15,329 bases of DNA from a virus (lineage: Duplodnaviria; Heunggongvirae; Uroviricota; Caudoviricetes). The stretch is taken from positions 1 through 15,329 of IMG/VR virus record IMGVR_UViG_2531839583_000004. One strand, given 5' to 3'. Each line of letters begins with the position of its first letter. Within the stretch, counting starts at the first letter, position 1. Position numbers and translations under genes: made by a program. Under the pieces are notes generated by a model. The model ran no database searches and was not told where the DNA came from. It was given only the letters and a program-made list of their open reading frames with translations. Below are positions 1 to 15,329 of this stretch, piece after piece.

Positions 1-671
1 CCGAATCACTCGGGCAACTTGCTCATCAAAACCTGTCAGCATGGATGATTGACGTCATCGGTCACGCAATAAGCGGTACGCAGGAGCGTGAATTATCTCT
101 GGCTGAATTATCCTGGTGGGCGGTCCGCAATCAGGTGGCGGACGCGCTACCGGAAGCGGTATTACGTCGTTCGCTGGGGTTGCGTGCGGAAAAAATTCGC
201 TCTGTGTACAGTGAAAGCGACATCATACCGGGAGAGCAGACCGCCACCAGCATACTGAAACAGCGCACAAAAAATCTTGCGCCGCTGCCTCACGCCCACC
301 AGCAACAGAACCCACCACAGGAAAAGACGGTGGTCAGCATTGCCGTTGATCCCGAGTCACCGGCTCAGTATCTCCAGCGCCAGAAATCACAACGGGAAGA
401 GATGCCTGTATACACGCGCTGGGTAAAAACGCAGAAATGCATGACGTGTGGCAATCAGGCAGATGATCCGCATCACATCATTGGTCATGGACTGGGAGGG
501 ATGGGAACAAAGGCTGATGATTTGTTTGTTATTCCGCTGTGCCGTAAATGCCATAGCGAACTACACGCCGGGGTAAAAGATTTTGAAGAAAAACACGGCA
601 GCCAGCTGTTGTTGCTGATTCGTTTTTTAATGCACGCGAGAAATTCGGGTGTTCTGAAGTGGAAAGCATAA
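1..671 (+). CDS. 5'-truncated phage ORF with C-terminal Cys/His HNH-like zinc-binding motif (DUF968/YdfU-like nin-region protein); the frame is open to the window edge
   Basis: Reading frame is open from position 3 through stop at 669-671 with no upstream stop. C-terminal motif CMTCGNQADDPHHIIGHGLGG...IPLCRKCHSELH resembles HNH/zinc-ribbon. Lies immediately upstream of rusA, as such ORFs do in lambdoid prophages. Confidence 0.5.
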   Translation, partial: ESLGQLAHQNLSAWMIDVIGHAISGTQERELSLAELSWWAVRNQVADALPEAVLRRSLGLRAEKIRSVYSESDIIPGEQTATSILKQRTKNLAPLPHAHQQQNPPQEKTVVSIAVDPESPAQYLQRQKSQREEMPVYTRWVKTQKCMTCGNQADDPHHIIGHGLGGMGTKADDLFVIPLCRKCHSELHAGVKDFEEKHGSQLLLLIRFLMHARNSGVLKWKA

Positions 672-1037
672 ATGACTGAACGCATAGAATTTGTTTTGCC
701 TTACCCGCCAACGGTGAACACTTACTGGCGACGTCGTGGCAGCACATATTTTGTATCAAAAGCCGGTGAGCGTTATCGCCGTGATGTGGCGCTTATTGTT
801 CGCCAGCAGCGGCTGAAATTAAACCTGTCCGGAAGGCTGGCGATAAAGATTATTGCAGAGCCACCGGATAAACGTCGTCGTGACCTGGACAATATCCTGA
901 AAGCACCACTGGATGCGCTGACGCATGCCGGACTTCTCATAGACGACGAGCAGTTTGATGAAATCAATATTGTGCGCGGTCAGCGCGTTCCTGGGGGGCG
1001 GCTGGGCGTGAAGATTTACAAAATTGAGAGTGAGTGA
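672..1037 (+). CDS. rusA: RusA-family Holliday junction resolvase
   Basis: 121 aa; conserved RusA signature PDKRRRDLDNILKAPLDAL with acidic catalytic residues; start ATG directly follows the upstream stop; typical position upstream of Q. Confidence 0.9.
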   Translation: MTERIEFVLPYPPTVNTYWRRRGSTYFVSKAGERYRRDVALIVRQQRLKLNLSGRLAIKIIAEPPDKRRRDLDNILKAPLDALTHAGLLIDDEQFDEINIVRGQRVPGGRLGVKIYKIESE

Positions 1038-1588
1038 TCGTAAATATGATATACCCGGAAATTACAGGCAAAAGCGGCGAGCATTTACGTCTAAAAACGC
1101 TGGAAGCCGTCTGGATCCAGGGGAAATTACGGATGTGGGGGCGTTGGTCGTATATAGGTGGTGGCAAACCAGGAAATATGTTCAATCAGTTGCTGGCATC
1201 CAAAAAACTGACAAAAACCGCAATCAATGAAGCCCTGCGTAGAATCAGGGAGTCAGGGATTGATAAACCAGAGCTGGAAGCATTCTTGCGAGAGATGATC
1301 GCTGGCAGACAGAAGAGCTGGTTGTCTCACTGTACTGATGCAGAGGCGTTACGCATTGATGGGGTGATAAGTAAAGCGCTTGCACGTTATCCTGGATTGA
1401 TTGATATCCTGCGGCAAAGGTACGAAGGGCGGGGGATGAGTAAACGCAAAATGGCTGAATTGTTGAATGAGGTGCACCCGGAATGGTGTTTTAGTACATG
1501 CGAAAAGCGAATTGCTAATTGGTTAGCTGTTGCTGAATATGCGCTATACATCCCTATGCGAGAATCGTTTGCTCAAAAAATGTCTTGA
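1034..1588 (+). CDS. putative late-gene antitermination protein (Q-like, non-lambda family)
   Basis: 184 aa ORF whose start overlaps the rusA stop (ATGA), suggesting translational coupling. Sits between rusA and a promoter-plus-terminator region, the canonical Q position. Possible His/Cys metal site (SHC...HPEWCFSTC). No recognisable similarity to lambda Q, so function is inferred from position. Confidence 0.5.
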   Translation: MIVNMIYPEITGKSGEHLRLKTLEAVWIQGKLRMWGRWSYIGGGKPGNMFNQLLASKKLTKTAINEALRRIRESGIDKPELEAFLREMIAGRQKSWLSHCTDAEALRIDGVISKALARYPGLIDILRQRYEGRGMSKRKMAELLNEVHPEWCFSTCEKRIANWLAVAEYALYIPMRESFAQKMS

Positions 1589-1613
1589 TTTTTTACGCAT
1601 AAACTGTTTCAAT
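1585..1613 (+). promoter_or_regulatory. candidate late promoter (pR'-like): TTGATT, 17 bp spacer, TTCAAT
   Basis: -35-like TTGATT at 1585-1590 and a weak -10-like TTCAAT at 1608-1613, immediately downstream of the Q-like gene and about 60 bp upstream of a strong terminator, mirroring the lambda pR'/tR' arrangement. Confidence 0.25.
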
Positions 1614-1671
1614 CCAGCTACGCTTCGCAAAGCTATACCGCGAGGCGAATAGCAGACATGGACACCTGAAA

Positions 1672-1697
1672 GAACCCGCTTTATGCGGGTTTTTTTG
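1672..1697 (+). terminator. rho-independent terminator (tR'-like)
   Basis: Hairpin CCCGC (1675-1679) / GCGGG (1685-1689) with loop TTTAT, followed by a run of seven T (1690-1696). Confidence 0.8.
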
Positions 1698-1819
1698 TGC
1701 CCGAAAAGCGGTACAGGACGTTAAATGCGCTGGTGGTTGCGAATGCCGGTCTTTCAGCTTGCTGGCTTTTTCGACAAGAGGTATTGGTATGTCACGTTAA
1801 CCGGAAAAGGGAAAAAGGC

Positions 1820-2017
1820 ATGCTAAAACAGCAGGATATGACCGAAACCGCCAGAGTGGTGTTTAATGAATTAAGCATCACCGAACCGGCGACCGTCGGG
1901 GAAATTGCGCAGAATACTTACCTTTCACGCGAACGCTGCCAGTTAATACTGACTCAGCTTGTTATGGCGGGTCTGGCAGATTATCAGTTCGGTTGTTACA
2001 GACGCCTTCCGCAGTGA
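1820..2017 (+). CDS. small hypothetical protein (65 aa), possible DNA-binding fold
   Basis: ATG at 1820 preceded by a purine-rich stretch (GGAAAAGGGAAAAAGGC). The track ORF 1697..2017 would start inside the terminator hairpin, so the internal start is preferred. Its own terminator follows at 2004-2026. Confidence 0.4.
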   Translation: MLKQQDMTETARVVFNELSITEPATVGEIAQNTYLSRERCQLILTQLVMAGLADYQFGCYRRLPQ

Positions 2018-2026
2018 AGGCTTTTT
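2004..2026 (+). terminator. rho-independent terminator overlapping the 3' end of the small ORF
   Basis: Stem GCCTTC (2004-2009) / GAAGGC (2016-2021) with loop CGCAGT, followed by TTTTT (2022-2026). Confidence 0.6.
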
Positions 2027-2167
2027 AATTTGTGGTAATGGGCGGCTGGGGGGTGTTAGCGGCACCTGCCAGCCATCTGCTCATGCGTTGGGGTCACAAG
2101 CAAACCTCAGGCCCATCTGCTTTGCGCAAAAGCGGTATGAGCCTATCAGAGAAGTGCTTATTGATCT

Positions 2168-3217
2168 ATGATTAATACTGTAAAAATATCCAGTTGTGAG
2201 TTAATCAACGCTGATTGCCTGGAGTTTATCCAGACCTTACCGGAAAATTCTGTCGATCTGATAGTCACAGACCCGCCATACTTTAAAGTGAAGCCCGAGG
2301 GCTGGGATAACCAGTGGGAGGGCGACGATGATTACCTGAAATGGCTGGACCAGTGTCTGGCGCAGTTCTGGCGGGTACTGAAGCCTACCGGAAGTCTTTA
2401 CCTGTTCTGTGGTCATCGCCTGGCATCTGACACCGAAATCATGATGCGTGAGCGCTTTAATGTGCTGAACCACATTATCTGGGCGAAGCCGTCCGGACGC
2501 TGGAACGGGTGCAATAAGGAAAGTCTGCGGGCGTATTTTCCGGCAACAGAGCGCATTCTGTTTGCAGAACATTATCAGGGACCGTATCGCCCGAAAGATG
2601 ATGGCTATGTGGCACAGGGGCGCGAGCTAAAACAGCACGTCATGGCCCCGCTGATTTCTTACTTTCGTGATGCGCGTAAATCACTGGGAATAACGTCAAA
2701 ACAGATAGCGGAAGCCACCGGAAAGAAAAACATGGCTTCGCACTGGTTTGGTACCAGTCAGTGGCAGTTACCGAACGAGGGGGATTACAACAAATTGCAG
2801 GCGTTGTTTGCGCGTGTTGCGGCAGAAAAACATCAGCGCGGGGAACTGGAAAAGCCACACCACCAGCTGGTCAGCACATACAGTGAGCTGAACCGGCAGT
2901 ACACGGAACTGCTGAGTGAATATAAAAATTTGCGGCGGTATTTCGGTGTGACGGCGCAGGTTCCGTACACCGATGTCTGGACGCATAAACCGGTGCAGTA
3001 CTATCCAGGAAAACATCCGTGCGAAAAACCGGCAGAAATGCTGCAGCAGATAATCAACGCGAGCAGTCGTCCGGGAGACCTGGTTGCAGATTTTTTTATG
3101 GGTTCAGGTTCAACGGTAAAAGCGGCGATGGCACTGGGGCGTTGTGCGATTGGTGTTGAGCTGGAGACAGGACGTTTTGAACAGACAGTCAGGGAAGTTC
3201 AGGATTTAATCGTTTGA
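2168..3217 (+). CDS. DNA amino-methyltransferase (N6-adenine or N4-cytosine), beta-class, orphan
   Basis: 349 aa. Motif IV DPPY (LIVTDPPYF) near the N-terminus and motif I FxGxG (DFFMGSGST) near the C-terminus give the beta-class order. A central region with an HTH-like segment (LGITSKQIAEATGK) is the likely target-recognition region. No adjacent restriction endonuclease ORF. Confidence 0.9.
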   Translation: MINTVKISSCELINADCLEFIQTLPENSVDLIVTDPPYFKVKPEGWDNQWEGDDDYLKWLDQCLAQFWRVLKPTGSLYLFCGHRLASDTEIMMRERFNVLNHIIWAKPSGRWNGCNKESLRAYFPATERILFAEHYQGPYRPKDDGYVAQGRELKQHVMAPLISYFRDARKSLGITSKQIAEATGKKNMASHWFGTSQWQLPNEGDYNKLQALFARVAAEKHQRGELEKPHHQLVSTYSELNRQYTELLSEYKNLRRYFGVTAQVPYTDVWTHKPVQYYPGKHPCEKPAEMLQQIINASSRPGDLVADFFMGSGSTVKAAMALGRCAIGVELETGRFEQTVREVQDLIV

Positions 3218-3266
3218 AACGGATGAGATTGCAGAATTAATTACGCACCATTATTATTCTGCTCCC

Positions 3267-3342
3267 GGCCCTTTAGCTCAGTGGTGAGAGCGAGCGACTC
3301 ATAATCGCCAGGTCGCTGGTTCAAATCCAGCAAGGGCCACCA
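3267..3342 (+). tRNA. tRNA with anticodon CAU (Ile2/lysidine-type or Met), including encoded CCA
   Basis: Cloverleaf: acceptor GGCCCTT/AAGGGCC, D-arm GCTC...GAGC, anticodon loop CTCATAA (anticodon CAT at 3300-3302), T-loop GGTTCAAATCC, 3' ACCA. Very close to E. coli ileX and to ileZ of Stx phages as recalled. Confidence 0.9.
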
Positions 3343-3349
3343 TCACATA

Positions 3350-3423
3350 CCGCCATTAGCTCATCGACAGAGAGTGCCAGCTTTCGAAACTGGCTGTGTG
3401 GGGCTCGGGTCCCCGATGGCAAT
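3350..3423 (+). pseudogene. degenerate tRNA-like element (possible decayed tRNA-Arg, anticodon-like TCG)
   Basis: Partial cloverleaf: acceptor CCGCCAT/ATGGCAA with two terminal mismatches, D-arm GCTC...GAGA, anticodon-like stem GCCAG/CTGGC around a 9-nt loop CTTTCGAAA (TCG central), T-arm TGGGG-CTCGGGT-CCCCG. No encoded CCA. Confidence 0.3.
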
Positions 3424-3439
3424 CCATTATCTGCATTAT

Positions 3440-3516
3440 GCGTTGTTAGCTCAGCCGGACAGAGCAATTGCCTTCTAAGCAATCGGTCACTGGTTCGAAT
3501 CCAGTACAACGCGCCA
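3440..3516 (+). tRNA. tRNA-Arg (anticodon UCU), including encoded CCA
   Basis: Acceptor GCGTTGT/ACAACGC, D-arm GCTCAGCCGGACAGAGC, anticodon loop CTTCTAA (anticodon TCT), T-loop GGTTCGAATCC, discriminator G plus CCA at 3514-3516. Resembles the argU/argO type. Confidence 0.9.
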
Positions 3517-3529
3517 CGCTTATTTTTCC

Positions 3530-3554
3530 AGGCTCGCTTTGGCGGGCCTTTTTC
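3530..3554 (+). terminator. rho-independent terminator downstream of the tRNA cluster
   Basis: Stem AGGCTCGC (3530-3537) / GCGGGCCT (3542-3549) including one G-U pair, loop TTTG, followed by TTTT (3550-3553). Confidence 0.5.
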
Positions 3555-3763
3555 ATATCCGCGCCCGTTATGAAGCGCCACCGCGTTCTGCTAATGCTGA
3601 AGCCCTTCGTCAGCTGACTGATGTTGCAGATACTGATGATACTGTGAATGTGCTGTGTCTGTGTCTGGATATCGCTGACCAGGACGGTATCGGTCAGGAA
3701 GAAGAAGCGCAACTGAAGAAAATTGCGCAGGCGCTGCAGTTGCCGCTGGAGCAGTACCTGTGA
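3539..3763 (+). pseudogene. TerB-like C-terminal fragment (probable gene remnant, 74 codons, no ATG start)
   Basis: ORF begins at TTG inside the terminator hairpin and has no in-frame ATG. The translation (VLCLCLDIADQDGIGQEEEAQLKKIAQALQLP) resembles the C-terminal half of TerB/DjlA-N-type domains as I recall them. GC-rich. Confidence 0.3.
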
Positions 3764-3912
3764 AAAGTGCGCGCCTTGTGCTGGCTGTCATCCTGTTGTT
3801 TCTGGTAGTGATGGTGGATTTCACCGGACGACTGATGTCAGTGCTGGCAGATGGTGTGCTGGTGGCGATGGCGCTGATCGTGCTCCGGCCTTTACTGCGT
3901 AAATCTGAATAA
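3760..3912 (+). CDS. small hydrophobic membrane protein (50 aa), GTG start overlapping the upstream stop
   Basis: GTG at 3760 overlaps TGA 3761-3763 (GTGA). Translation VKSARLVLAVILLFLVVMVDFTGRLMSVLADGVLVAMALIVLRPLLRKSE predicts two hydrophobic helices. Below the ORF-track size cutoff. Confidence 0.35.
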   Translation: MKSARLVLAVILLFLVVMVDFTGRLMSVLADGVLVAMALIVLRPLLRKSE

Positions 3913-4000
3913 CATCACACAAAAGGCATCTGCGGGGGCCTTTGACGGGGTGTTTTTTTACGGGTCGCTGGTGGCCCTTTTTTTATTTTCAGGAGGAAGT

Positions 4001-4390
4001 ATGTCTGAACCCTTATCCGGTTCCGGCACGGCTGCGGCGCTGGGTGGCGCGACGGTATTCGGGCTGTTTACCGGGATGGATTTCGGGATTGTGTTTGGCG
4101 CGTTCGCCGGGGCGTTATTTGTGGCAACGATGCCGCAGTCACTTTCAGTCTGGCGCGTGGTGGCGCATTTTCTGGTGTCGTTTATTGTCGGCGTGCTGGG
4201 AGCGCGTGTGCTGTCAGCCTGGATTGCATCAAAAACAGGGTATGACGGTACATCGGCAGATGCGCTGTGTGCGGTGCTGGTATCGGTGGTGTCGGTGAAG
4301 ATTCTGTCGTTCATCCACCAGCAGGATATTGCATCGTTGGTGTCCGGTGTGTTCTCCCGTCTGCGGGGTGGAGGCGGTAATGTTAAGTAA
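4001..4390 (+). CDS. putative holin (multi-pass membrane protein, 129 aa)
   Basis: Strong Shine-Dalgarno AGGAGGA 5 nt upstream of ATG 4001. Gly/Ala-rich hydrophobic segments with a charged C-terminal tail. First gene of a cassette ending in an endolysin. No similarity to lambda S recalled. Confidence 0.55.
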   Translation: MSEPLSGSGTAAALGGATVFGLFTGMDFGIVFGAFAGALFVATMPQSLSVWRVVAHFLVSFIVGVLGARVLSAWIASKTGYDGTSADALCAVLVSVVSVKILSFIHQQDIASLVSGVFSRLRGGGGNVK

Positions 4391-4655
4391 CCTTCCCGGA
4401 TTACTGAATGTGGTGTTAAGCACGGTTATCGTGCTGACGCTCTTTTTTTATCGTCGTGGTGATTCCAGACATAAACCGCTGATGTCGTGGCTGGCCTGGC
4501 TGCTGATGCTGCTGTATGCCTTTGCGCCACTTTGTTATCTGTGTGGTCGCTTTCCACCCGGTAACTGGCTGGTCGTCCTGATTAACCTGGTGTTCTGCGT
4601 GCTGGTGATACGAGCACGCGGGAACGTATCAAAAATCCTTTCATTACGGAGGTGA
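4380..4655 (+). CDS. second lysis-cassette membrane protein (holin/antiholin-like, 91 aa)
   Basis: GGAGG 5 nt upstream of ATG 4380; overlaps the holin 3' end by 11 nt; stop is 2 nt before the endolysin start. Predicted 2-3 transmembrane segments. Confidence 0.5.
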   Translation: MLSNLPGLLNVVLSTVIVLTLFFYRRGDSRHKPLMSWLAWLLMLLYAFAPLCYLCGRFPPGNWLVVLINLVFCVLVIRARGNVSKILSLRR

Positions 4656-4657
4656 GT

Positions 4658-5035
4658 ATGCCCGGTAAATTCAGATTCAGTCGTCGAAGTGAGAAAAATC
4701 TGGAGGGCGTCAAACCACAGCTGGTTGCTGTTGTTCGCCGTGCGCTGGAGCTGACGGAGGTTGACTTCGGTATTACGGAAGGCCTGCGCAGTAAGTATCG
4801 CCAGAAGCAGCTGGTCGCGGAAGGGAAAAGCCAGACCATGAACAGCCGCCACCTGACCGGTGATGCGGTGGATGTTGTGGCCTACATTGGTAGCCAGGTG
4901 TCATGGGACTGGCCTCTGTACGAGAAAATCGCGCAGGCATTTAAGCAGGCTGCCGCAGAGCTGGGAACTGCCATCGAATGGGGCGGGGACTGGAAAACAC
5001 TGAAAGACGGGCCTCACTTTCAGTTGAAGTGCTAA
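4658..5035 (+). CDS. endolysin, peptidase M15 family (L-alanyl-D-glutamate endopeptidase, T5 Lys-like)
   Basis: GGAGG 5 nt upstream of ATG 4658. Conserved Zn-ligand context SRHL...DAVD...DGPHFQL (His, Asp, His) typical of M15 phage endolysins. About 126 aa. Confidence 0.85.
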   Translation: MPGKFRFSRRSEKNLEGVKPQLVAVVRRALELTEVDFGITEGLRSKYRQKQLVAEGKSQTMNSRHLTGDAVDVVAYIGSQVSWDWPLYEKIAQAFKQAAAELGTAIEWGGDWKTLKDGPHFQLKC

Positions 5036-5049
5036 TAACCAGGTGGTTT

Positions 5050-5232
5050 ATGAGCCGAAAACACTGGACACACAGAATGCCGCGAACGGCGGCGAAATGG
5101 GCACTGGTAGCGATACTGGTGCCTTTTTTCCTGGTGGGATGCGTTAGCCTGGATAAGGTGCGCCAGCTTTTCGATACGGCCTCGCAGGTCTGCGAAATTG
5201 TCGAAAGTGCCAGGCAGTGTATGCAGAACTGA
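5050..5232 (+). CDS. small lipoprotein (lipobox LVGC); possible o-spanin-like or other lysis-associated lipoprotein
   Basis: AGGTGG upstream of ATG 5050. Signal peptide AKWALVAILVPFFLVG followed by Cys; mature peptide about 30 aa with three Cys. Immediately follows the endolysin. No Rz-like partner ORF detected. Confidence 0.5.
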   Translation: MSRKHWTHRMPRTAAKWALVAILVPFFLVGCVSLDKVRQLFDTASQVCEIVESARQCMQN

Positions 5233-5319
5233 TCGCCTGTAAGAGCAGAATATTGTTGAATCTAAATTTACTTTGAACAGTGGCCCGGATGGAAAGGGCA
5301 TCTAAATAGGAGCAGAAAA

Positions 5320-5529
5320 ATGTTAACTGTAAAAGTCATGTCTCAAAATGGTGGGGAAGAGCTCCATTGCGGGCGTAGCATTGGCTATCATCCAGAGCAG
5401 CGGAGTATTGCCGTATCGGGAAAGGATGGGAAAGTCATTCTGAAAGATGGAGATATTGCTTATGTAATGAACCAAAACGCTCAAATAATATCTGTTTATC
5501 GGCCCAATAATAGTCAGAAAAACATTTGA
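5320..5529 (+). CDS. hypothetical small protein (69 aa) in AT-rich moron
   Basis: Good Shine-Dalgarno AGGAG 6 nt upstream of ATG 5320. Low-GC codon usage distinct from flanking phage genes. Confidence 0.5.
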   Translation: MLTVKVMSQNGGEELHCGRSIGYHPEQRSIAVSGKDGKVILKDGDIAYVMNQNAQIISVYRPNNSQKNI

Positions 5530-5571
5530 ATTTCGCAAGTCCAAAGTTCAGTGGTGATCGTTATCAACTAA

Positions 5572-5600
5572 TTGAAATAACAAGCTTATGTTTGTGTAAT
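5572..5600 (+). promoter_or_regulatory. candidate sigma70 promoter (TTGAAA, 17 bp spacer, TGTAAT) for the second moron ORF
   Basis: TTGAAA at 5572-5577, 17-bp spacer, TGTAAT at 5595-5600, about 50 bp upstream of the ORF starting at 5653. Confidence 0.35.
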
Positions 5601-5652
5601 TGGTGATATAGCATGTTAATGCTGAATATCAGCGTCAACATGGAGTTATACA

Positions 5653-5868
5653 ATGGTTTTTAAACACTATTACGTGAACAAAAATGCTCAGAGCAATGGC
5701 GATCATGAGGTGCATGCTGAGGAATGTTCATATCTTCCTGCTGTAGCTAACCGCGATTACCTTGGTTACTATAGTGATTGTTCTTCGGCGGTAACAGAGG
5801 CAAAGGCCAAAGGATATTCCCGGGTGAATGGTTGCTATTGGTGTGCCAATAAGTGCCACACGTCTTAA
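5653..5868 (+). CDS. hypothetical small Cys/His-rich protein (71 aa) in AT-rich moron
   Basis: GGAG 8 nt upstream of ATG 5653. Cys/His pattern (EEC...DC...GCYWCANKCH) suggests a metal-binding mini-domain. Followed directly by a terminator. Confidence 0.5.
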   Translation: MVFKHYYVNKNAQSNGDHEVHAEECSYLPAVANRDYLGYYSDCSSAVTEAKAKGYSRVNGCYWCANKCHTS

Positions 5869-5887
5869 TCAATTGTCAATAAACCAT

Positions 5888-5911
5888 AAAGGCCGCTCTG
5901 CGGCCTTTTTC
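5888..5911 (+). terminator. rho-independent terminator closing the moron
   Basis: Stem GGCCG (5891-5895) / CGGCC (5901-5905), loop CTCTG, then TTTTT (5906-5910); an upstream A-run makes it potentially bidirectional. Confidence 0.7.
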
Positions 5912-6185
5912 ATGTTAAAAAAGATTGCGGCATTACAGCAGCCCTTCACACTGAGTGGCTGCGATAATGTGAGAAATAAAAAACCGGCAGGGGAAATCCA
6001 TTGAAGATTTGCCGGTGGCAAAAAGATGGCCATGCTTTCAACCTTAGTCGCAGGGTTACGGAGTGCAACTACGAATGCTGCCGGTATATGGCTGAATGGC
6101 GTTTCAATGATGTACGTCATCTTATCTGTAAATGTTAATGATAAAAGCTCTCATTTGTGCGGGTCCTTCCGGTGGGGTGGCCTGC

Positions 6186-6206
6186 CACGGGGCGGAAGGC
6201 GCGCGG
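6186..6206. other. cosN (cohesive-end site), variant 12-nt core GGGCGGAAGGCG
   Basis: Flanking sequence ...CACG|GGGCGG......|CGCGGGTTTTCGCTATTTATGAAAATTTTCCGG matches the lambda left end as recalled. The 12-nt core differs from lambda GGGCGGCGACCT at positions 7-10 and 12. Confidence 0.6.
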
Positions 6207-6239
6207 GTTTTCGCTATTTATGAAAATTTTCCGGGGAAA

Positions 6240-6356
6240 ATCATGTCGGTACTTCTCGAACATAACTATTTGTTTTTTCTAATATCGAATCCGTAAAAGG
6301 TCCGACATGAAAACGCCTAAAAAAGTCATTTTCGGGCACTTTCATGTCGGACCCTG
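6240..6356. promoter_or_regulatory. cosB-like region: three CATGTCGG(A/T)C repeats (R3, inverted R2, R1) around an AT-rich putative IHF-bending segment
   Basis: CATGTCGGTAC at 6242-6252 (+), TCCGACATGAAA at 6301-6312 (inverted), TTTCATGTCGGACC at 6341-6354 (+); AT-rich spacer 6254-6298. Arrangement parallels lambda R3-I1-R2-R1 but with a different repeat sequence. Confidence 0.55.
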
Positions 6357-6377
6357 TGTTTGTTGTGAGACTGTTTC

Positions 6378-6897
6378 ATGAAGGTTAATAAAAAGAAACT
6401 TGCCGAAATTTTCAACGTGGATCCGCGAACGATTGAACGCTGGCAGTCTCAGGGACTCCCTTGCGTCTCCGGAGGTGGTAAGGGCGTTGAATCTGTATTT
6501 GATACCTCCATGGCAATTCAGTGGTATGCGCAGAGGGAGGCTGATATCGAAAATGAAAAACTCCGTAAAGAGGTTGAGGATTACAGGGCTGCCAGTGAGG
6601 CAGATCTCCAGCCTGGGACTATTGAGTACGAACGCCATCGACTTACGCGTGCGCAGGCCGACGCACAGGAGCTGAAGAATGCCAGAGACTCCGCAGAAGT
6701 GGTGGAAACCGCATTCTGTACTTTCGTGCTGTCACGGATCGCAGGTGAAATTGCCAGTATTCTTGACGGGATCCCTCTCTCGGTACAGCGGCGTTTTCCG
6801 GAACTGGAAAACCGACATGTTGATTTCCTGAAACGGGATATCATCAAAGCCATGAACAAAGCAGCCGCGCTGGATGAACTGATACCGGGGTTGCTGA

Positions 6898-6923
<26 letters not shown>
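6378..6923 (+). CDS. nu1: terminase small subunit Nu1
   Basis: 181 aa. C-terminal two thirds essentially identical to lambda Nu1 as recalled; N-terminal winged-HTH region homologous but diverged. Located just downstream of cos. Confidence 0.95.
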
Positions 6924-10604
<3,681 letters not shown>

Positions 10605-10624
<20 letters not shown>

Positions 10625-11924
10625 TCTCCCGCATATTGCCAGCATGGCCTTTAATGAGCCGCTGATGCTTGAACCCGCCTATGCGCGGGTTTTCTTTTGT
10701 GCGCTTGCAGGCCAGCTTGGGATCAGCCGCCTGACGGATGCGGTGTCCGGCGACAGCCTGACTGCCCAGGAGGCACTCGTGACGCTGGCATTATCCGGTG
10801 ATGATGACGGACCACGACAGGCCCGCAGTTATCAGGTCATGAACGGCATCGCCGTGCTGCCGGTGTCCGGCACGCTGGTCAGCCGGACGCGGGCGCTGCA
10901 GCCGTACTCGGGGATGACCGGTTACAACGGCATTATCGCCCGTCTGCAACAGGCTGCCAGCGACCCGATGGTGGACGGCATTCTGCTCGATATGGACACG
11001 CCAGGCGGAATGGTGGCGGGGGCATTTGACTGCGCTGACATCATCGCCCGTGTGCGTGACATAAAACCGGTATGGGCGCTGGCCAACGACATGAACTGCA
11101 GTGCAGGTCAGCTGCTTGCCAGTGCCGCCTCCCGGCGTCTGGTCACGCAGACCGCCCGGACAGGCTCCATCGGCGTCATGATGGCTCACAGTAATTACGG
11201 TGCTGCCCTGGAGAAACAGGGTGTGGAAATCACGCTGATTTACAGCGGCAGCCATAAGGGGGATGGCAATCCCTACAGCCATCTTCCGGATGACGTCCGG
11301 GAGACACTGCAGTCCCGGATGGACGCAACCCGCCAGATGTTTGCGCAGAAGGGGTCGGCATATACCGGCCTGTCTGTGCAGGCTGTGCTGGATACCGAGG
11401 CTGCAGTGTACAGCGGTCAGGAGGCCATTGATGCCGGACTGGCTGATGAACTTGTTAACAGCACCGATGCGATCACCGTCATGCGTGATGCACTGGATGC
11501 GCGTAAATCCCGTCTCTCAGGAGGGCGAATGACCAAAGAGACTCAATCAACAACTGTTTCAGCCACTGCTTCGCAGACTGACGTTACTGACGTGGTGCCA
11601 GCGACGGAGGGCGAAAACGCCAGCGCGGCGCAGCCGGACGTGAACGCGCAGATCACCGCTGCGGTTGCGGCAGAAAACAGCCGCATTATGGGGATCCTCA
11701 ACTGTGAGGAGGCTCACGGACGCGAAGAACAGGCCCGCGTGCTGGCAGAAACCCCCGGTATGACCGTGGAAACGGCCCGCCGCATTCTGGCAGCTGCACC
11801 ACAGAGTGCACAGGCGCGCAGTGACACTGCGCTGGATCGTCTGATGCAGGGGGCACCGGCACCGCTGGCTGCAGGTAACCCGGCATCTGATGCCGTTAAC
11901 GATTTGCTGAACACACCAGTGTAA
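10605..11924 (+). CDS. C: capsid assembly protease / minor capsid protein C
   Basis: GTG start at 10605 overlapping the B 3' end by 20 nt; 439 codons; translation VTAELRNLPHIASMAFNEPLMLEP... matches lambda gpC. The track ORF start at 10458 lies inside B and is rejected. Confidence 0.93.
11319..11924 (+). CDS. nu3: scaffolding protein Nu3 (in-frame internal start within C)
   Basis: In-frame ATG at 11319 giving MDATRQMFAQKGSAYTGL..., co-terminal with C as in lambda. Confidence 0.8.
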   Translation: MDATRQMFAQKGSAYTGLSVQAVLDTEAAVYSGQEAIDAGLADELVNSTDAITVMRDALDARKSRLSGGRMTKETQSTTVSATASQTDVTDVVPATEGENASAAQPDVNAQITAAVAAENSRIMGILNCEEAHGREEQARVLAETPGMTVETARRILAAAPQSAQARSDTALDRLMQGAPAPLAAGNPASDAVNDLLNTPV

Positions 11925-11933
11925 GGGATGTTT

Positions 11934-12266
11934 ATGACGAGCAAAGAAACCTTTACCCATTACCAGCCGCTGGGCAACAGTGACCCGGCACATACGGCAA
12001 CCGCGCCCGGCGGATTGAGTGCGAAAGCGCCTGCAATGACCCCGCTGATGCTGGACCCCTCCACCCGTAAGCTGGTTGTGTGGGATGGCACCACCGACGG
12101 TGCTGCCGTTGGCATTCTGGCGGTTGCTGCTGACCAGACCAGCACCACGCTGACGTTCTACAAGTCCGGCACGTTCCGTTATGAGGATGTGCTCTGGCCG
12201 GAGGCTGCCAGCGACGAGACGAAAAAACGGACCGCGTTTGCCGGAACGGCAATCAGCATCGTTTAA
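11934..12266 (+). CDS. D: head decoration protein D
   Basis: 110 aa, [27 protein letters not shown]... matches lambda gpD; Shine-Dalgarno AAGGGA upstream of ATG 11934. Confidence 0.95.
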
Positions 12267-12286
12267 CCTTACCCTTCATCACTAAA

Positions 12287-12308
12287 GGCCGCCTGTGCGG
12301 CTTTTTTT
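12287..12308 (+). terminator. intergenic hairpin plus T-run between D and E (terminator/attenuator-like)
   Basis: Stem GCCGC (12288-12292) / GCGGC (12297-12301), loop CTGT, then TTTTTTT (12302-12308). Confidence 0.45.
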
Positions 12309-12321
12309 ACGGGATTTTTTT

Positions 12322-13347
12322 ATGTCGATGTACACAACCGCCCAGCTGCTGGCGGCAAATGAGAAGAAATTTAAGTTTGATCCGCTGTTTCTGCGTCTCT
12401 TTTTCCGTGAGAGCTATCCCTTCACCACGGAGAAAGTCTATCTCTCACAAATTCCGGGACTGGTAAACATGGCGCTGTACGTTTCGCCGATTGTTTCCGG
12501 TGAGGTTATCCGCTCCCGTGGCGGCTCCACCTCTGAATTTACACCGGGATATGTCAAGCCGAAGCATGAGGTGAATCCGCAGATGACCCTGCGTCGCCTG
12601 CCGGATGAAGATCCACAGAATCTGGCGGACCCGGCTTACCGCCGCCGTCGCATCATTCTGCAGAACATGCGAGACGAAGAGCTGGCCATTGCTCAGGTCG
12701 AAGAGATGCAGGCCGTTTCTGCCGTGCTTAAGGGCAAATATACCATGACCGGTGAAGCCTTCGATCCGGTTGAAGTGGATATGGGCCGCAGTGTGGCGAA
12801 CAACATCACGCAGTCCGGCGGTACGGAGTGGAGCAAGCGTGACAAGTCCACGTATGACCCGACCGACGATATCGAAGCCTACGCGCTGAACGCCAGCGGT
12901 GTGGTGAATATCATCGTGTTTGATCCGAAAGGCTGGGCGCTGTTCCGTTCCTTCAAAGCCGTCAGGGAGAAGCTGGATGCCCGTCGCGGCTCTCATTCCG
13001 AGCTGGAGACAGCGGTAAAAGATCTGGGCGAAGCGGTGTCCTATAAGGGGATGTATGGCGATACGGCGATCGTCGTGTATTCCGGACAGTACGTGGAAAA
13101 CGACGTCAAAAAGAACTTCCTGCCGGACAACACGATGGTGCTGGGGAACACTCAGGCACGCGGTCTGCGCACCTATGGCTGCATTCAGGATGCGGACGCA
13201 CAGCGCGAAGGTATTAACGCCTCTGCCCGCTACCCGAAAAACTGGGTGACCACCGGCGATCCGGCGCGTGAGTTCACCATGATTCAGTCAGCACCGCTGA
13301 TGCTGCTGGCTGACCCTGATGCGTTCGTGTCCGTACAACTGGCGTAA
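12322..13347 (+). CDS. E: major capsid protein E
   Basis: 341 aa, MSMYTTAQLLAANEKKFKFDPLFLRLFF... matches lambda gpE. ATG 12322 is preferred over the track start 12295, which lies inside the hairpin. Confidence 0.97.
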   Translation: MSMYTTAQLLAANEKKFKFDPLFLRLFFRESYPFTTEKVYLSQIPGLVNMALYVSPIVSGEVIRSRGGSTSEFTPGYVKPKHEVNPQMTLRRLPDEDPQNLADPAYRRRRIILQNMRDEELAIAQVEEMQAVSAVLKGKYTMTGEAFDPVEVDMGRSVANNITQSGGTEWSKRDKSTYDPTDDIEAYALNASGVVNIIVFDPKGWALFRSFKAVREKLDARRGSHSELETAVKDLGEAVSYKGMYGDTAIVVYSGQYVENDVKKNFLPDNTMVLGNTQARGLRTYGCIQDADAQREGINASARYPKNWVTTGDPAREFTMIQSAPLMLLADPDAFVSVQLA

Positions 13348-13388
13348 TCATGGCCCTTCGGGGCCATTTTCTCTCTGTGGAGGAGTCC

Positions 13389-13784
13389 ATGACGAAAGAT
13401 GAACTGATTGCCCGTCTTCAGGTGCTGGGTGAGCAACTGAACCGTGATGTCAGCCTGACGGGGACGAAAGAAGAACTGGCACTCCGTGTGGCAGAGCTGG
13501 AAGAGGAGCTTGATGACACGGATGACGCTGCTGGTCAGGACACATCTGTCAGCCCGGAAAATGCGCTGACCGGACATGAAAATGAGGTTGTATCAGCGCA
13601 GCCGGATACCGTGACTGATACGGCTGATCTGGTCACGGTTGTGGCACTGGTGACGCTGCATACTGATGCACTTCACGCCACGCGGGATGAGGCTGTGGCA
13701 TTTGTGCTGCCGGGAACGGCGTTCCGTGTCTCTGCCGGTGTGGCAGCTGAAATGACAGAGCGCGGCCTGGCCAGAATGCAATAA
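13389..13784 (+). CDS. FI: DNA packaging / head completion protein FI
   Basis: 131 aa, MTKDELIARLQVLGEQLNRDVSLTGTKEELALRVAELEEEL... matches lambda gpFI; Shine-Dalgarno GGAGGAG upstream. Confidence 0.9.
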   Translation: MTKDELIARLQVLGEQLNRDVSLTGTKEELALRVAELEEELDDTDDAAGQDTSVSPENALTGHENEVVSAQPDTVTDTADLVTVVALVTLHTDALHATRDEAVAFVLPGTAFRVSAGVAAEMTERGLARMQ

Positions 13785-13795
13785 CGGGAGGCGCT

Positions 13796-14149
13796 GTGGC
13801 TGATTTCGATAACCTGTTCGATGCTGCCATTGCCCGCGCCGATGAAACGATACGCGGGTACATGGGAACGTCAGCCACCATGACATCCGGTGAGCAGTCC
13901 GGTGCTGTGATACGTGGTGTTTTTGATGATCCTGAAAATATCAGCTATGCCGGACAGGGCGTGCGCGTTGAAGGCTCCAGCCCGTCCCTGTTTGTCCGGA
14001 CTGATGATGTGCGGCAGCTGCGGCGTGGAGACACGCTGACCATCGGTGAGGAAAACTTCTGGGTAGATCGGGTTACGCCGGATGATGGCGGAAGCTGTCA
14101 TCTCTGGCTTGGGCGGGGGGTACCGCCTGCCGTTAACCGTCGCCGCTGA
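13796..14149 (+). CDS. FII: head-tail connector protein FII
   Basis: GTG start at 13796; 117 aa; ADFDNLFDAAIARADETIRGYMGT... matches lambda gpFII. Confidence 0.9.
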   Translation: MADFDNLFDAAIARADETIRGYMGTSATMTSGEQSGAVIRGVFDDPENISYAGQGVRVEGSSPSLFVRTDDVRQLRRGDTLTIGEENFWVDRVTPDDGGSCHLWLGRGVPPAVNRRR

Positions 14150-14160
14150 AAGGGGGATGT

Positions 14161-14739
14161 ATGGCCATAAAAGGTCTTGAGCAGGCCGTTGAAAACCTCA
14201 GCCGTATCAGCAAAACGGCGGTGCCTGGTGCCGCCGCAATGGCCATTAACCGCGTTGCTTCATCCGCGATATCGCAGTCGGCGTCACAGGTTGCCCGTGA
14301 GACAAAGGTACGCCGGAAACTGGTAAAGGAAAGGGCCAGGCTGAAAAGGGCCACGGTCAAAAATCCGCAGGCCAGAATCAAAGTTAACCGGGGGGATTTG
14401 CCCGTAATCAGGCTGGGTAACGCGCGGGTTGTCCTGTCCCGACGCAGGCGTCGTAAAAAGGGGCAGCGTTCAGCCCTGAAAGGTGGCGGCAGCGTGCTTG
14501 TGGTGGGAAACCGTCGTATTCCCGGCGCGTTTATTCAGCAACTGAAAAATGGCCGCTGGCATGTCATGCAGCGTGTGGCCGGGAAAAACCGTTACCCCAT
14601 TGATGTGGTGAAAATCCCGATGGCGGTGCCGCTGACCACGGCGTTTAAACAGAATATTGAACGGATACGGCGTGAACGTCTTCCGAAAGAGCTGGGCTAT
14701 GCGCTGCAGCATCAACTGAGAATGGTAATAAAGCGATGA
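14161..14739 (+). CDS. Z: tail completion protein Z
   Basis: 192 aa, MAIKGLEQAVENLSRISKTAVPGAAAMAINRV... matches lambda gpZ; Shine-Dalgarno AGGGGGA upstream. Confidence 0.95.
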   Translation: MAIKGLEQAVENLSRISKTAVPGAAAMAINRVASSAISQSASQVARETKVRRKLVKERARLKRATVKNPQARIKVNRGDLPVIRLGNARVVLSRRRRRKKGQRSALKGGGSVLVVGNRRIPGAFIQQLKNGRWHVMQRVAGKNRYPIDVVKIPMAVPLTTAFKQNIERIRRERLPKELGYALQHQLRMVIKR

Positions 14740-15131
14740 AACATACTGAACTCCGTGCAGCCGTACTGGATGCACTGGAGAAGCATGACACCGGGGCGAC
14801 GCTTTTTGATGGTCGCCCCGCTGTTTTTGATGAGGCGGATTTTCCGGCAGTTGCCGTTTATCTCACCGGCGCTGAATACACGGGCGAAGAGCTGGACAGC
14901 GATACCTGGCAGGCGGAGCTGCATATCGAAGTTTTCCTGCCTGCTCAGGTGCCGGATTCAGAGCTGGATGCGTGGATGGAGTCCCGGATTTATCCGGTGA
15001 TGAGCGATATCCCGGCACTGTCAGATTTGATCACCAGTATGGTGGCCAGCGGCTATGACTACCGGCGCGACGATGATGCGGGCCTGTGGAGTTCAGCCGA
15101 TCTGACTTATGTCATTACCTATGAAATGTGA
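14736..15131 (+). CDS. U: tail tube terminator protein U
   Basis: 131 aa, MKHTELRAAVLDALEKHDTGATLFDGRPAVFDEADF... matches lambda gpU; ATGA overlap with the Z stop. Confidence 0.95.
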   Translation: MKHTELRAAVLDALEKHDTGATLFDGRPAVFDEADFPAVAVYLTGAEYTGEELDSDTWQAELHIEVFLPAQVPDSELDAWMESRIYPVMSDIPALSDLITSMVASGYDYRRDDDAGLWSSADLTYVITYEM

Positions 15132-15138
15132 GGACGCT

Positions 15139-15159
15139 ATGCCTGTACGGAAACATTGA
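15139..15159 (+). pseudogene. V: vestigial start of major tail gene V (ATGCCTGTAC) followed by an in-frame stop after 6 codons
   Basis: Sequence AGGACGCTATGCCTGTAC matches the lambda U-V junction and V start as recalled, then diverges; frame reads M-P-V-R-K-H-stop. Confidence 0.4.
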
Positions 15160-15329
15160 CTTTATCGAGATCTCGGCGCGCGGTCTGCCTTCTTCGCTTA
15201 CTGCTGATAATGTATCTCGTTACCTGAGTATACGCCGTTTAGGGCCAACCGGGCTAATCAATAGCATGCAAATGCGTTACGGCCTGGTTAAAGATGATGG
15301 CTTTATTGAGGTTTGGGCCTTCCAGCGTG

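Follow-up and report, generated by a model that had tools for sequence, protein, structure and literature searches.

Lambda-like phages commonly differ from one another at bp 7-12 of their cohesive ends (Feiss et al. 2015, PMC4669245). The ends of N15 and phiD326 depart from that of lambda at bp 9 and 12, and the end of Gifsy-1 does so at bp 8, 9 and 11 (PMC4669245); in each of these phages the substitutions lie only within bp 7-12, the end is otherwise lambda-like and terminase function is intact. We confirmed the N15 end from its sequence as GGGCGGCGTCCG; cos is absent from the start of the Gifsy-1 record, and the Gifsy-1 allele is given here from PMC4669245 only. The two halves of lambda cosN are functionally asymmetric (Xu & Feiss 1991, as summarised in PMC4669245). 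Mutations in the right half have a minimal phenotype, and while G2C cuts the phage yield about 10-fold, the symmetrical change C11G has no effect (PMC4669245). The CG pairs at the nicks and the cosQ signal are conserved, and neither the lambda terminase nor that of the lambda-N15 hybrid N15hy4, both of which have the lambda TerL, discriminates between cosN sequences (PMC4669245). Chromosomes with ends mismatched at 2 of the 12 positions are viable with a yield of about 25% and can segregate both alleles (PMC4669245).

Here we describe a cos site in a DNA stretch of 15,329 nucleotides (positions 1 to 15,329 of the IMG/VR record IMGVR_UViG_2531839583_000004, hereafter referred to as the window), of which the predicted cohesive end departs from that of lambda at more positions than the ends mentioned above. 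The window represents an E. coli lambdoid prophage, 98-99% identical copies of which are present in several finished E. coli genomes; the closest copies are from human isolates, the enterotoxigenic strain ETEC H10407 among them.

Results

Organization of the cos site

On the evidence of its sequence, the segment 6161-6355 of the window is an intact lambda-family cos site, consisting of cosQ, cosN and a cosB of phage 21 specificity, upstream of full-length terminase genes. The cosQ heptamer GGGTCCT, the packaging-termination signal (6161-6167, plus strand), is invariant in lambda, phage 21, phage 1W and IdasGreatGrand. It is followed on the same strand by a cosQ-to-cosN spacer of the cdtI/phi458 type, TCCGGTGGGGTGGCCTGCCACG (6168-6189), which is not lambda-like save for its final ACG. 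Relative to lambda, the part of this spacer at 6168-6186 carries many substitutions and lacks 1 bp, and the distance from cosQ to the predicted top-strand nick is 22 nt in the window compared to 23 nt in lambda. From cosQ to this nick the window reads GGGTCCTTCCGGTGGGGTGGCCTGCCACG, exactly as at the right end of phage cdtI (AB285204) and as in phi458, and the cdtI record ends exactly at CCACG, with its last base matching position 6189 of the window. As defined by Murialdo & Feiss, cosN comprises the 12 bp of the cohesive end together with a CG pair at either border and would here cover 6188-6203 (PMC9026076 and PMC4669245 give this definition and describe the two CG pairs as conserved). The two CG pairs, at 6188-6189 and 6202-6203, are conserved across all phages in our alignment. 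Between them lies the predicted 5' cohesive end of 12 nt, GGGCGGAAGGCG (6190-6201, plus strand), its limits being set by the presumed nick positions.

To the right of cosN, the segment 6202-6234 (plus strand) reads CGCGGGTTTTCGCTATTTATGAAAATTTTCCGG and is identical to lambda at 33 of 33 positions. This segment includes the putative site I2 for the integration host factor IHF (6219-6233), which was mapped from the annotation of phage 21 (M81255) and matches the phage 21 site at 13 of 15 positions. Beyond 6234, the window tracks a cosB of the phage 21 type and not that of lambda. In order, we found a candidate R3 box, a predicted binding site of the small terminase subunit with phage 21 specificity (6239-6254, plus strand; 15 of 16 positions identical to the annotated phage 21 box), the putative IHF site I1 (6261-6275, plus strand; 13/15), an R2 box on the minus strand (6297-6312; 16/16) and an R1 box on the plus strand (6340-6355; 14/16). 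The orientation of R2, inverted relative to R3 and R1, is that given in PMC4669245. The interval between cosN and R3 shows no indel relative to phage 21, the spacing being equal. Phage 21 and IdasGreatGrand thus have the same order of cosQ, cosN, I2, R3, I1, R2, R1 and terminase genes as the window, but their cohesive end is the canonical GGGCGGCGACCT and their cosQ spacer is lambda-like with 23 nt; in the window the end is GGGCGGAAGGCG and the spacer is cdtI-like with 22 nt. The preliminary description of this DNA had regarded the sequences adjoining the core as identical to those of lambda. This holds for the right side throughout, whereas on the left side the ACG at 6187-6189, which was correctly matched to lambda, and the upstream cosQ are all that the window and lambda have in common, the remainder being cdtI/phi458-like.

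Two short open reading frames extend across the cos site (6026-6223 and 6132-6296), and equivalents are annotated as hypothetical proteins in the records of IdasGreatGrand and phage 1W, among others. Linear virion DNA would have these frames split between its two ends, and the calls are probably spurious.

[quoted passage not shown]

In an alignment with positions 6100-6400 of the window, the columns of the predicted cohesive end show GGGCGGCGACCT in each of lambda DE3, phage 21 (M81255), phage 1W and IdasGreatGrand. [quoted passage not shown] The alignment bears out both statements: the quoted core is the one read in all four phages, and within the core the window differs from each of them in the right half only. 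The left half GGGCGG (6190-6195) is canonical, being the same in lambda, phage 21 and N15. The differences from lambda are at bp 7, 8, 9, 10 and 12 (6196-6199 and 6201), while C11 (6200) is the only base of the right half that the window has in common with lambda. N15 has changes at two positions of its end and Gifsy-1 at three, compared to five in the window allele. Moreover, the window allele is combined with a complex cosB of the lambda/21 type and a lambda-type large terminase subunit gpA, whereas the variants of N15 and Gifsy-1 are found in distinct phage lineages. From cosQ through the top-strand nick and the GGGCGG, cdtI and phi458 are identical to the window, but their right half is GAGCGT (end GGGCGGGAGCGT), and both the sequence beyond CGCGG and the annotated sizes of the terminase subunits differ from those of the window.

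The altered right half has little effect on the predicted stability of the duplex. Both 12-mers contain 10 G+C, and the nearest-neighbour free energy (dG at 37°C) is −17.7 kcal/mol for the variant and −18.1 kcal/mol for the canonical sequence. The variant also creates a BssHII-type palindrome, GCGCGC, at 6199-6204 inside an alternating GCGCGCG run, and the centre of this palindrome falls exactly at 6201/6202, where the bottom strand is predicted to be nicked.

Overall, the window has the canonical left half, the CG pairs at the nicks, C11, cosQ, the 33 bp of the right flank, the downstream Nu1 and gpA genes and a lambda-type gpA in common with lambda, and it differs from lambda at bp 7-10 and 12 as well as in the cosB and the Nu1 DNA-binding domain, which both appear to have phage 21 specificity. 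It therefore keeps every element that PMC4669245 treats as constrained and alters only the part that is called unconstrained there.

Distribution of the allele

The 20-mer ACGGGGCGGAAGGCGCGCGG has 81 exact matches in IMG/VR, which are located on 81 contigs. The 12-mer is invariant across about 46 distinct contexts (−45 to +90) in these contigs, which include several unrelated left flanks and cosB sequences of the lambda type, the phage 21 type and a third type. For complete E. coli genomes, we used a 36-mer that can seed only through the variant bases. This variant 36-mer was found at 166 places in 155 of the 5,426 genomes, 16 of these places being on plasmids, and the canonical 36-mer was found at 7,405 places in 4,097 genomes of the same set, so that the allele accounts for about 2% of the E. 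coli sites. When 120 IMG/VR sites were sampled irrespective of their allele, about 7 carried AAGGCG at bp 7-12, 112 were canonical and 1 had CGACCG.

Exactly GGGCGGAAGGCG, together with the conserved right flank, is also present in PhiR46_1 (PV340565) and the N15-like YDC107_1 (CP025712). Unlike the window, both have a cosB of the lambda type and a left flank that is lambda-like with 23 nt, and neither record has an annotation for cos. PhiR46.1 is listed as an isolated temperate phage of the panel of Brenes & Laub 2025 in the supplementary strain table (PMC13190303), and its sequence record starts and stops at positions other than the genome ends. In a collection of genome contigs with one genome per species, the 20-mer gave 16 matches, of which only that in Escherichia sp. 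E1V33 is plausible; the other 15, in non-enterobacterial and in many cases GC-rich genomes, are presumably chance matches. This one-genome-per-species collection hence provided no evidence for the allele outside Escherichia, and a search of plasmids with terminase genes added nothing on cosN. In the searchable literature, a query for exact GGGCGGAAGGCG gave only an unrelated Ginkgo paper, and this end is not among the alleles named in PMC4669245; the allele is apparently undescribed.

One IMG/VR contig (L031, IMGVR_UViG_2623620496_000002) has a cos with AAGGCG and, at a distance of about 12.3 kb, a canonical cos that points the same way. These two sites may belong to adjacent prophages or remnants, and a pair of this kind could, in principle, give rise to DNA whose ends are mismatched.

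Allele spectrum and linkage to the left flank

Within the same flanks, scans of IMG/VR that covered right halves other than AGACCT and other than AGA or CGA at bp 7-9 combined with a non-canonical bp 10 or 11 and a final T gave at least the following rarer alleles of bp 7-12: CAGGCG (4 contigs), CAGACG (3 contigs), GAGCGT (2 contigs), TGACCT (2 contigs), and CAACCT, CTGACG, AAGCGT, AAGGCT and CGACCG (1 contig each). AGACCT is the right half of the isolated phage PhiR70_1 (L092, PV340577), the end of which is GGGCGGAGACCT, and one further IMG/VR contig (L161) has the end GGGCGGCGACCG; both are single-step variants of the canonical sequence. The right half of cosN is thus truly polymorphic, with two dominant alleles, and AAGGCG is the second commonest cosN allele in E. 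coli.

Among the loci that were fetched, the 22-nt cosQ spacing occurs at 27 of 86 AAGGCG sites, 3 of 4 CAGGCG sites and both GAGCGT sites, but at only 1 of 118 canonical sites. Accordingly, the type of the left flank and the cohesive-end allele are in linkage disequilibrium, and the window combines AAGGCG with the 22-nt spacing that is also seen in cdtI and phi458. This skew suggests that the non-canonical alleles arose on a cdtI-like flank and later spread to lambda-like flanks, and AAGGCG probably arose on a cdtI-like left flank as in the window. A mosaic origin of AAGGCG from the canonical allele and GAGCGT, the allele of cdtI, was rejected because bp 7, 10 and 12 match neither of these. 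The cdtI-type end GGGCGGGAGCGT was itself found in two IMG/VR loci (L225 and L228), where it is joined to a lambda-like right flank, CGCGGGTTTTCGC, and to cosB sequences of the lambda and phage 21 types. The cdtI allele, too, therefore crosses between sites with differing downstream sequences.

Two loci from the same metagenome, L080 (AAGGCG) and L098 (CGACCT), form a near-isogenic pair: 7,053 bp could be aligned with 19 mismatches, and 5 of these 19 are bp 7, 8, 9, 10 and 12 of cosN. Likewise, PhiR46_1 and L098 differ between −150 and +400 at those five cosN bases only. A swap of five bases on a background divergence of about 0.2% points to replacement of a block and not to drift.

Terminase and the wider prophage context

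The small terminase subunit Nu1/gp1 (181 aa) is encoded at 6378-6923 on the plus strand (Pfam Phage_Nu1, E = 2.6e-90) and the large subunit gpA, the ATPase and cosN-nicking endonuclease (641 aa), at 6898-8823 on the same strand (Pfam GpA_ATPase and GpA_nuclease). Full-length genes with strong Pfam matches downstream of cos are those for Nu1, gpA, W, a lambda-family portal protein and the major capsid protein E, and in strain 504838 a 99%-identical copy of the prophage has a full lambda-type complement of annotated head and proximal tail genes. The Nu1 of the window shares 99% identity with its counterpart in IdasGreatGrand, an isolated phage with a canonical cosN. Its identity to gp1 of phage 21 is 65%, nearly all of which lies within the first 100 or so residues. 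In the first 60 residues 54 positions are identical, so that the DNA-binding domain is predicted to be of the phage 21 type. Nu1 of the window thus looks like a natural chimera, with an N-terminal part of about 100 aa that is 21-like and a C-terminal part that has diverged from phage 21. We take this C-terminal part to resemble that of lambda Nu1, which would fit the pairing with a lambda-type gpA.

For 91 loci with a complete gpA, we compared the last 620 residues of this protein. Both cosN alleles are present in five sets of loci in which this sequence is identical. In particular, the last 620 residues of the window gpA are identical to those of L097, which has a canonical cosN, and gpA of PhiR46_1 is identical to gpA of L098 and L137, which are both canonical. 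Co-adaptation of terminase and cosN allele was therefore rejected: since identical gpA and 99%-identical Nu1 proteins occur with both alleles, no co-adapted terminase is needed.

Additional features of the prophage were observed. Two tRNA genes (3267-3342 and 3440-3516) separate the lysis genes from a DNA methyltransferase gene (2168-3217); ARAGORN identifies them as tRNA-Met(CAT) and tRNA-Arg(TCT), and the first is labelled tRNA-Ile by RefSeq in a 99%-identical copy. In E. coli 510016 (NZ_CP025851.1, 4650121-4656537), another 99%-identical copy is interrupted at the terminase genes by ISEc10, an insertion sequence of the IS21 family, which indicates that some copies of this prophage type are undergoing inactivation.

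Discussion

We consider it very probable that GGGCGGAAGGCG is a functional natural allele of cosN that would give rise to a different 12-nt overhang, and that it is tolerated and behaves as a discrete block moved among the lambdoid phages of E. coli. The nick positions and the overhang are predicted here by homology with lambda. In the mechanism that we propose, Nu1 and IHF would bind cosB, with Nu1 at the R boxes, and position gpA, which would then introduce a nick between 6189 and 6190 on the top strand and another between 6201 and 6202 on the bottom strand, thereby releasing 5' overhangs of 12 nt that read GGGCGGAAGGCG instead of GGGCGGCGACCT. The substitution may be tolerated because nicking of the bottom strand is set by the anchoring of the terminase at cosB and not by a reading of bp 7-12. 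The elements that are expected to matter are all present, namely GGGCGG, a CG pair at either nick, C11, cosQ and the spacing between cosN and R3, and the two ends of any one phage would still be complementary, with a predicted duplex stability that is essentially unchanged.

The preliminary description had offered two explanations for the altered core, a change of the cohesive ends or the decay of a non-inducible prophage. We infer the former from the cos sequence, whereas the latter receives little support. A defective prophage in which cosN has drifted and is no longer cut would be in keeping with the prophage nature of the window DNA and with the IS21-family element that has inserted beside or inside the terminase genes of the nearly identical copy in strain 510016. 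However, the identical 12-mer is found on 81 IMG/VR contigs and at 166 places in E. coli genomes, on unrelated flanks and with three types of cosB; PhiR46.1, an isolated temperate phage, also carries it, the genes for packaging and the head are all full-length in the window, and the near-isogenic pair points to a block replacement and not to drift. Decay is therefore largely refuted and very improbable. An error of sequencing or assembly in this GC-rich stretch has even less to recommend it: we found no point in its favour, and it is refuted by the recurrence of the same sequence in phage isolates, in metagenomic contigs and in 155 E. coli genomes that were each finished independently, so that its likelihood is negligible.

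An alternative that deserves more weight, even though we regard it as rather unlikely, is that the allele is functional but costly or specialised, being cut less efficiently or requiring a co-adapted terminase or host factor with a distinct cosN specificity. The change of five of the six right-half positions goes beyond the two or three that were tested or discussed by Feiss et al., so that there may be some loss of cleavage efficiency, and the allele is a minority one, with about 2% of the E. coli sites. The occurrence of identical gpA and 99%-identical Nu1 with both alleles argues against such specialisation, as do the published observations that the lambda and lambda-N15 hybrid terminases lack cosN specificity and that right-half mutations, including C11G, have no phenotype (PMC4669245). 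The documented natural variation at bp 7-12 without a phenotype also largely removes the surprise that the altered core might imply. The kind of variation seen here is thus documented, but the allele itself is more divergent than those described, with five changes compared to two or three.

For the functional, block-moving allele, a further and more tentative idea, which we think possible though improbable, is that GGGCGGAAGGCG defines a second compatibility group of cohesive ends: ends mismatched at 5 of the 12 positions would cyclise poorly, and the block would move via mismatched ends or short-patch conversion. If this were true, a chromosome packaged from a canonical cos to one with AAGGCG, whether these lie in adjacent prophages or in a recombinant concatemer, would have such mismatched ends, which would act as a partial barrier to the formation of hybrids, and rare survivors with mismatched ends, or short-patch conversion, would transfer the overhang block alone between otherwise identical genomes. 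This would explain the clean five-base swaps and the dominance of two alleles, with rare variants that are one to four substitutions away from either.

In practical terms, annotation by means of the string GGGCGGCGACCT would miss about 2% of the lambda-type cos sites in complete E. coli genomes and about 6% in the IMG/VR sample, and the genome records of phages that carry the present allele could be started from their correct ends; the practical value of this is modest. The findings overturn nothing that is known. They extend the published view that bp 7-12 are free to vary, since five of these six positions are replaced at sites served by terminases identical to those of canonical sites, they indicate that two discrete alleles, each moving as a block, dominate the variation found in nature, and they bear on the viability of hybrids between lambdoid phages with different sticky ends.
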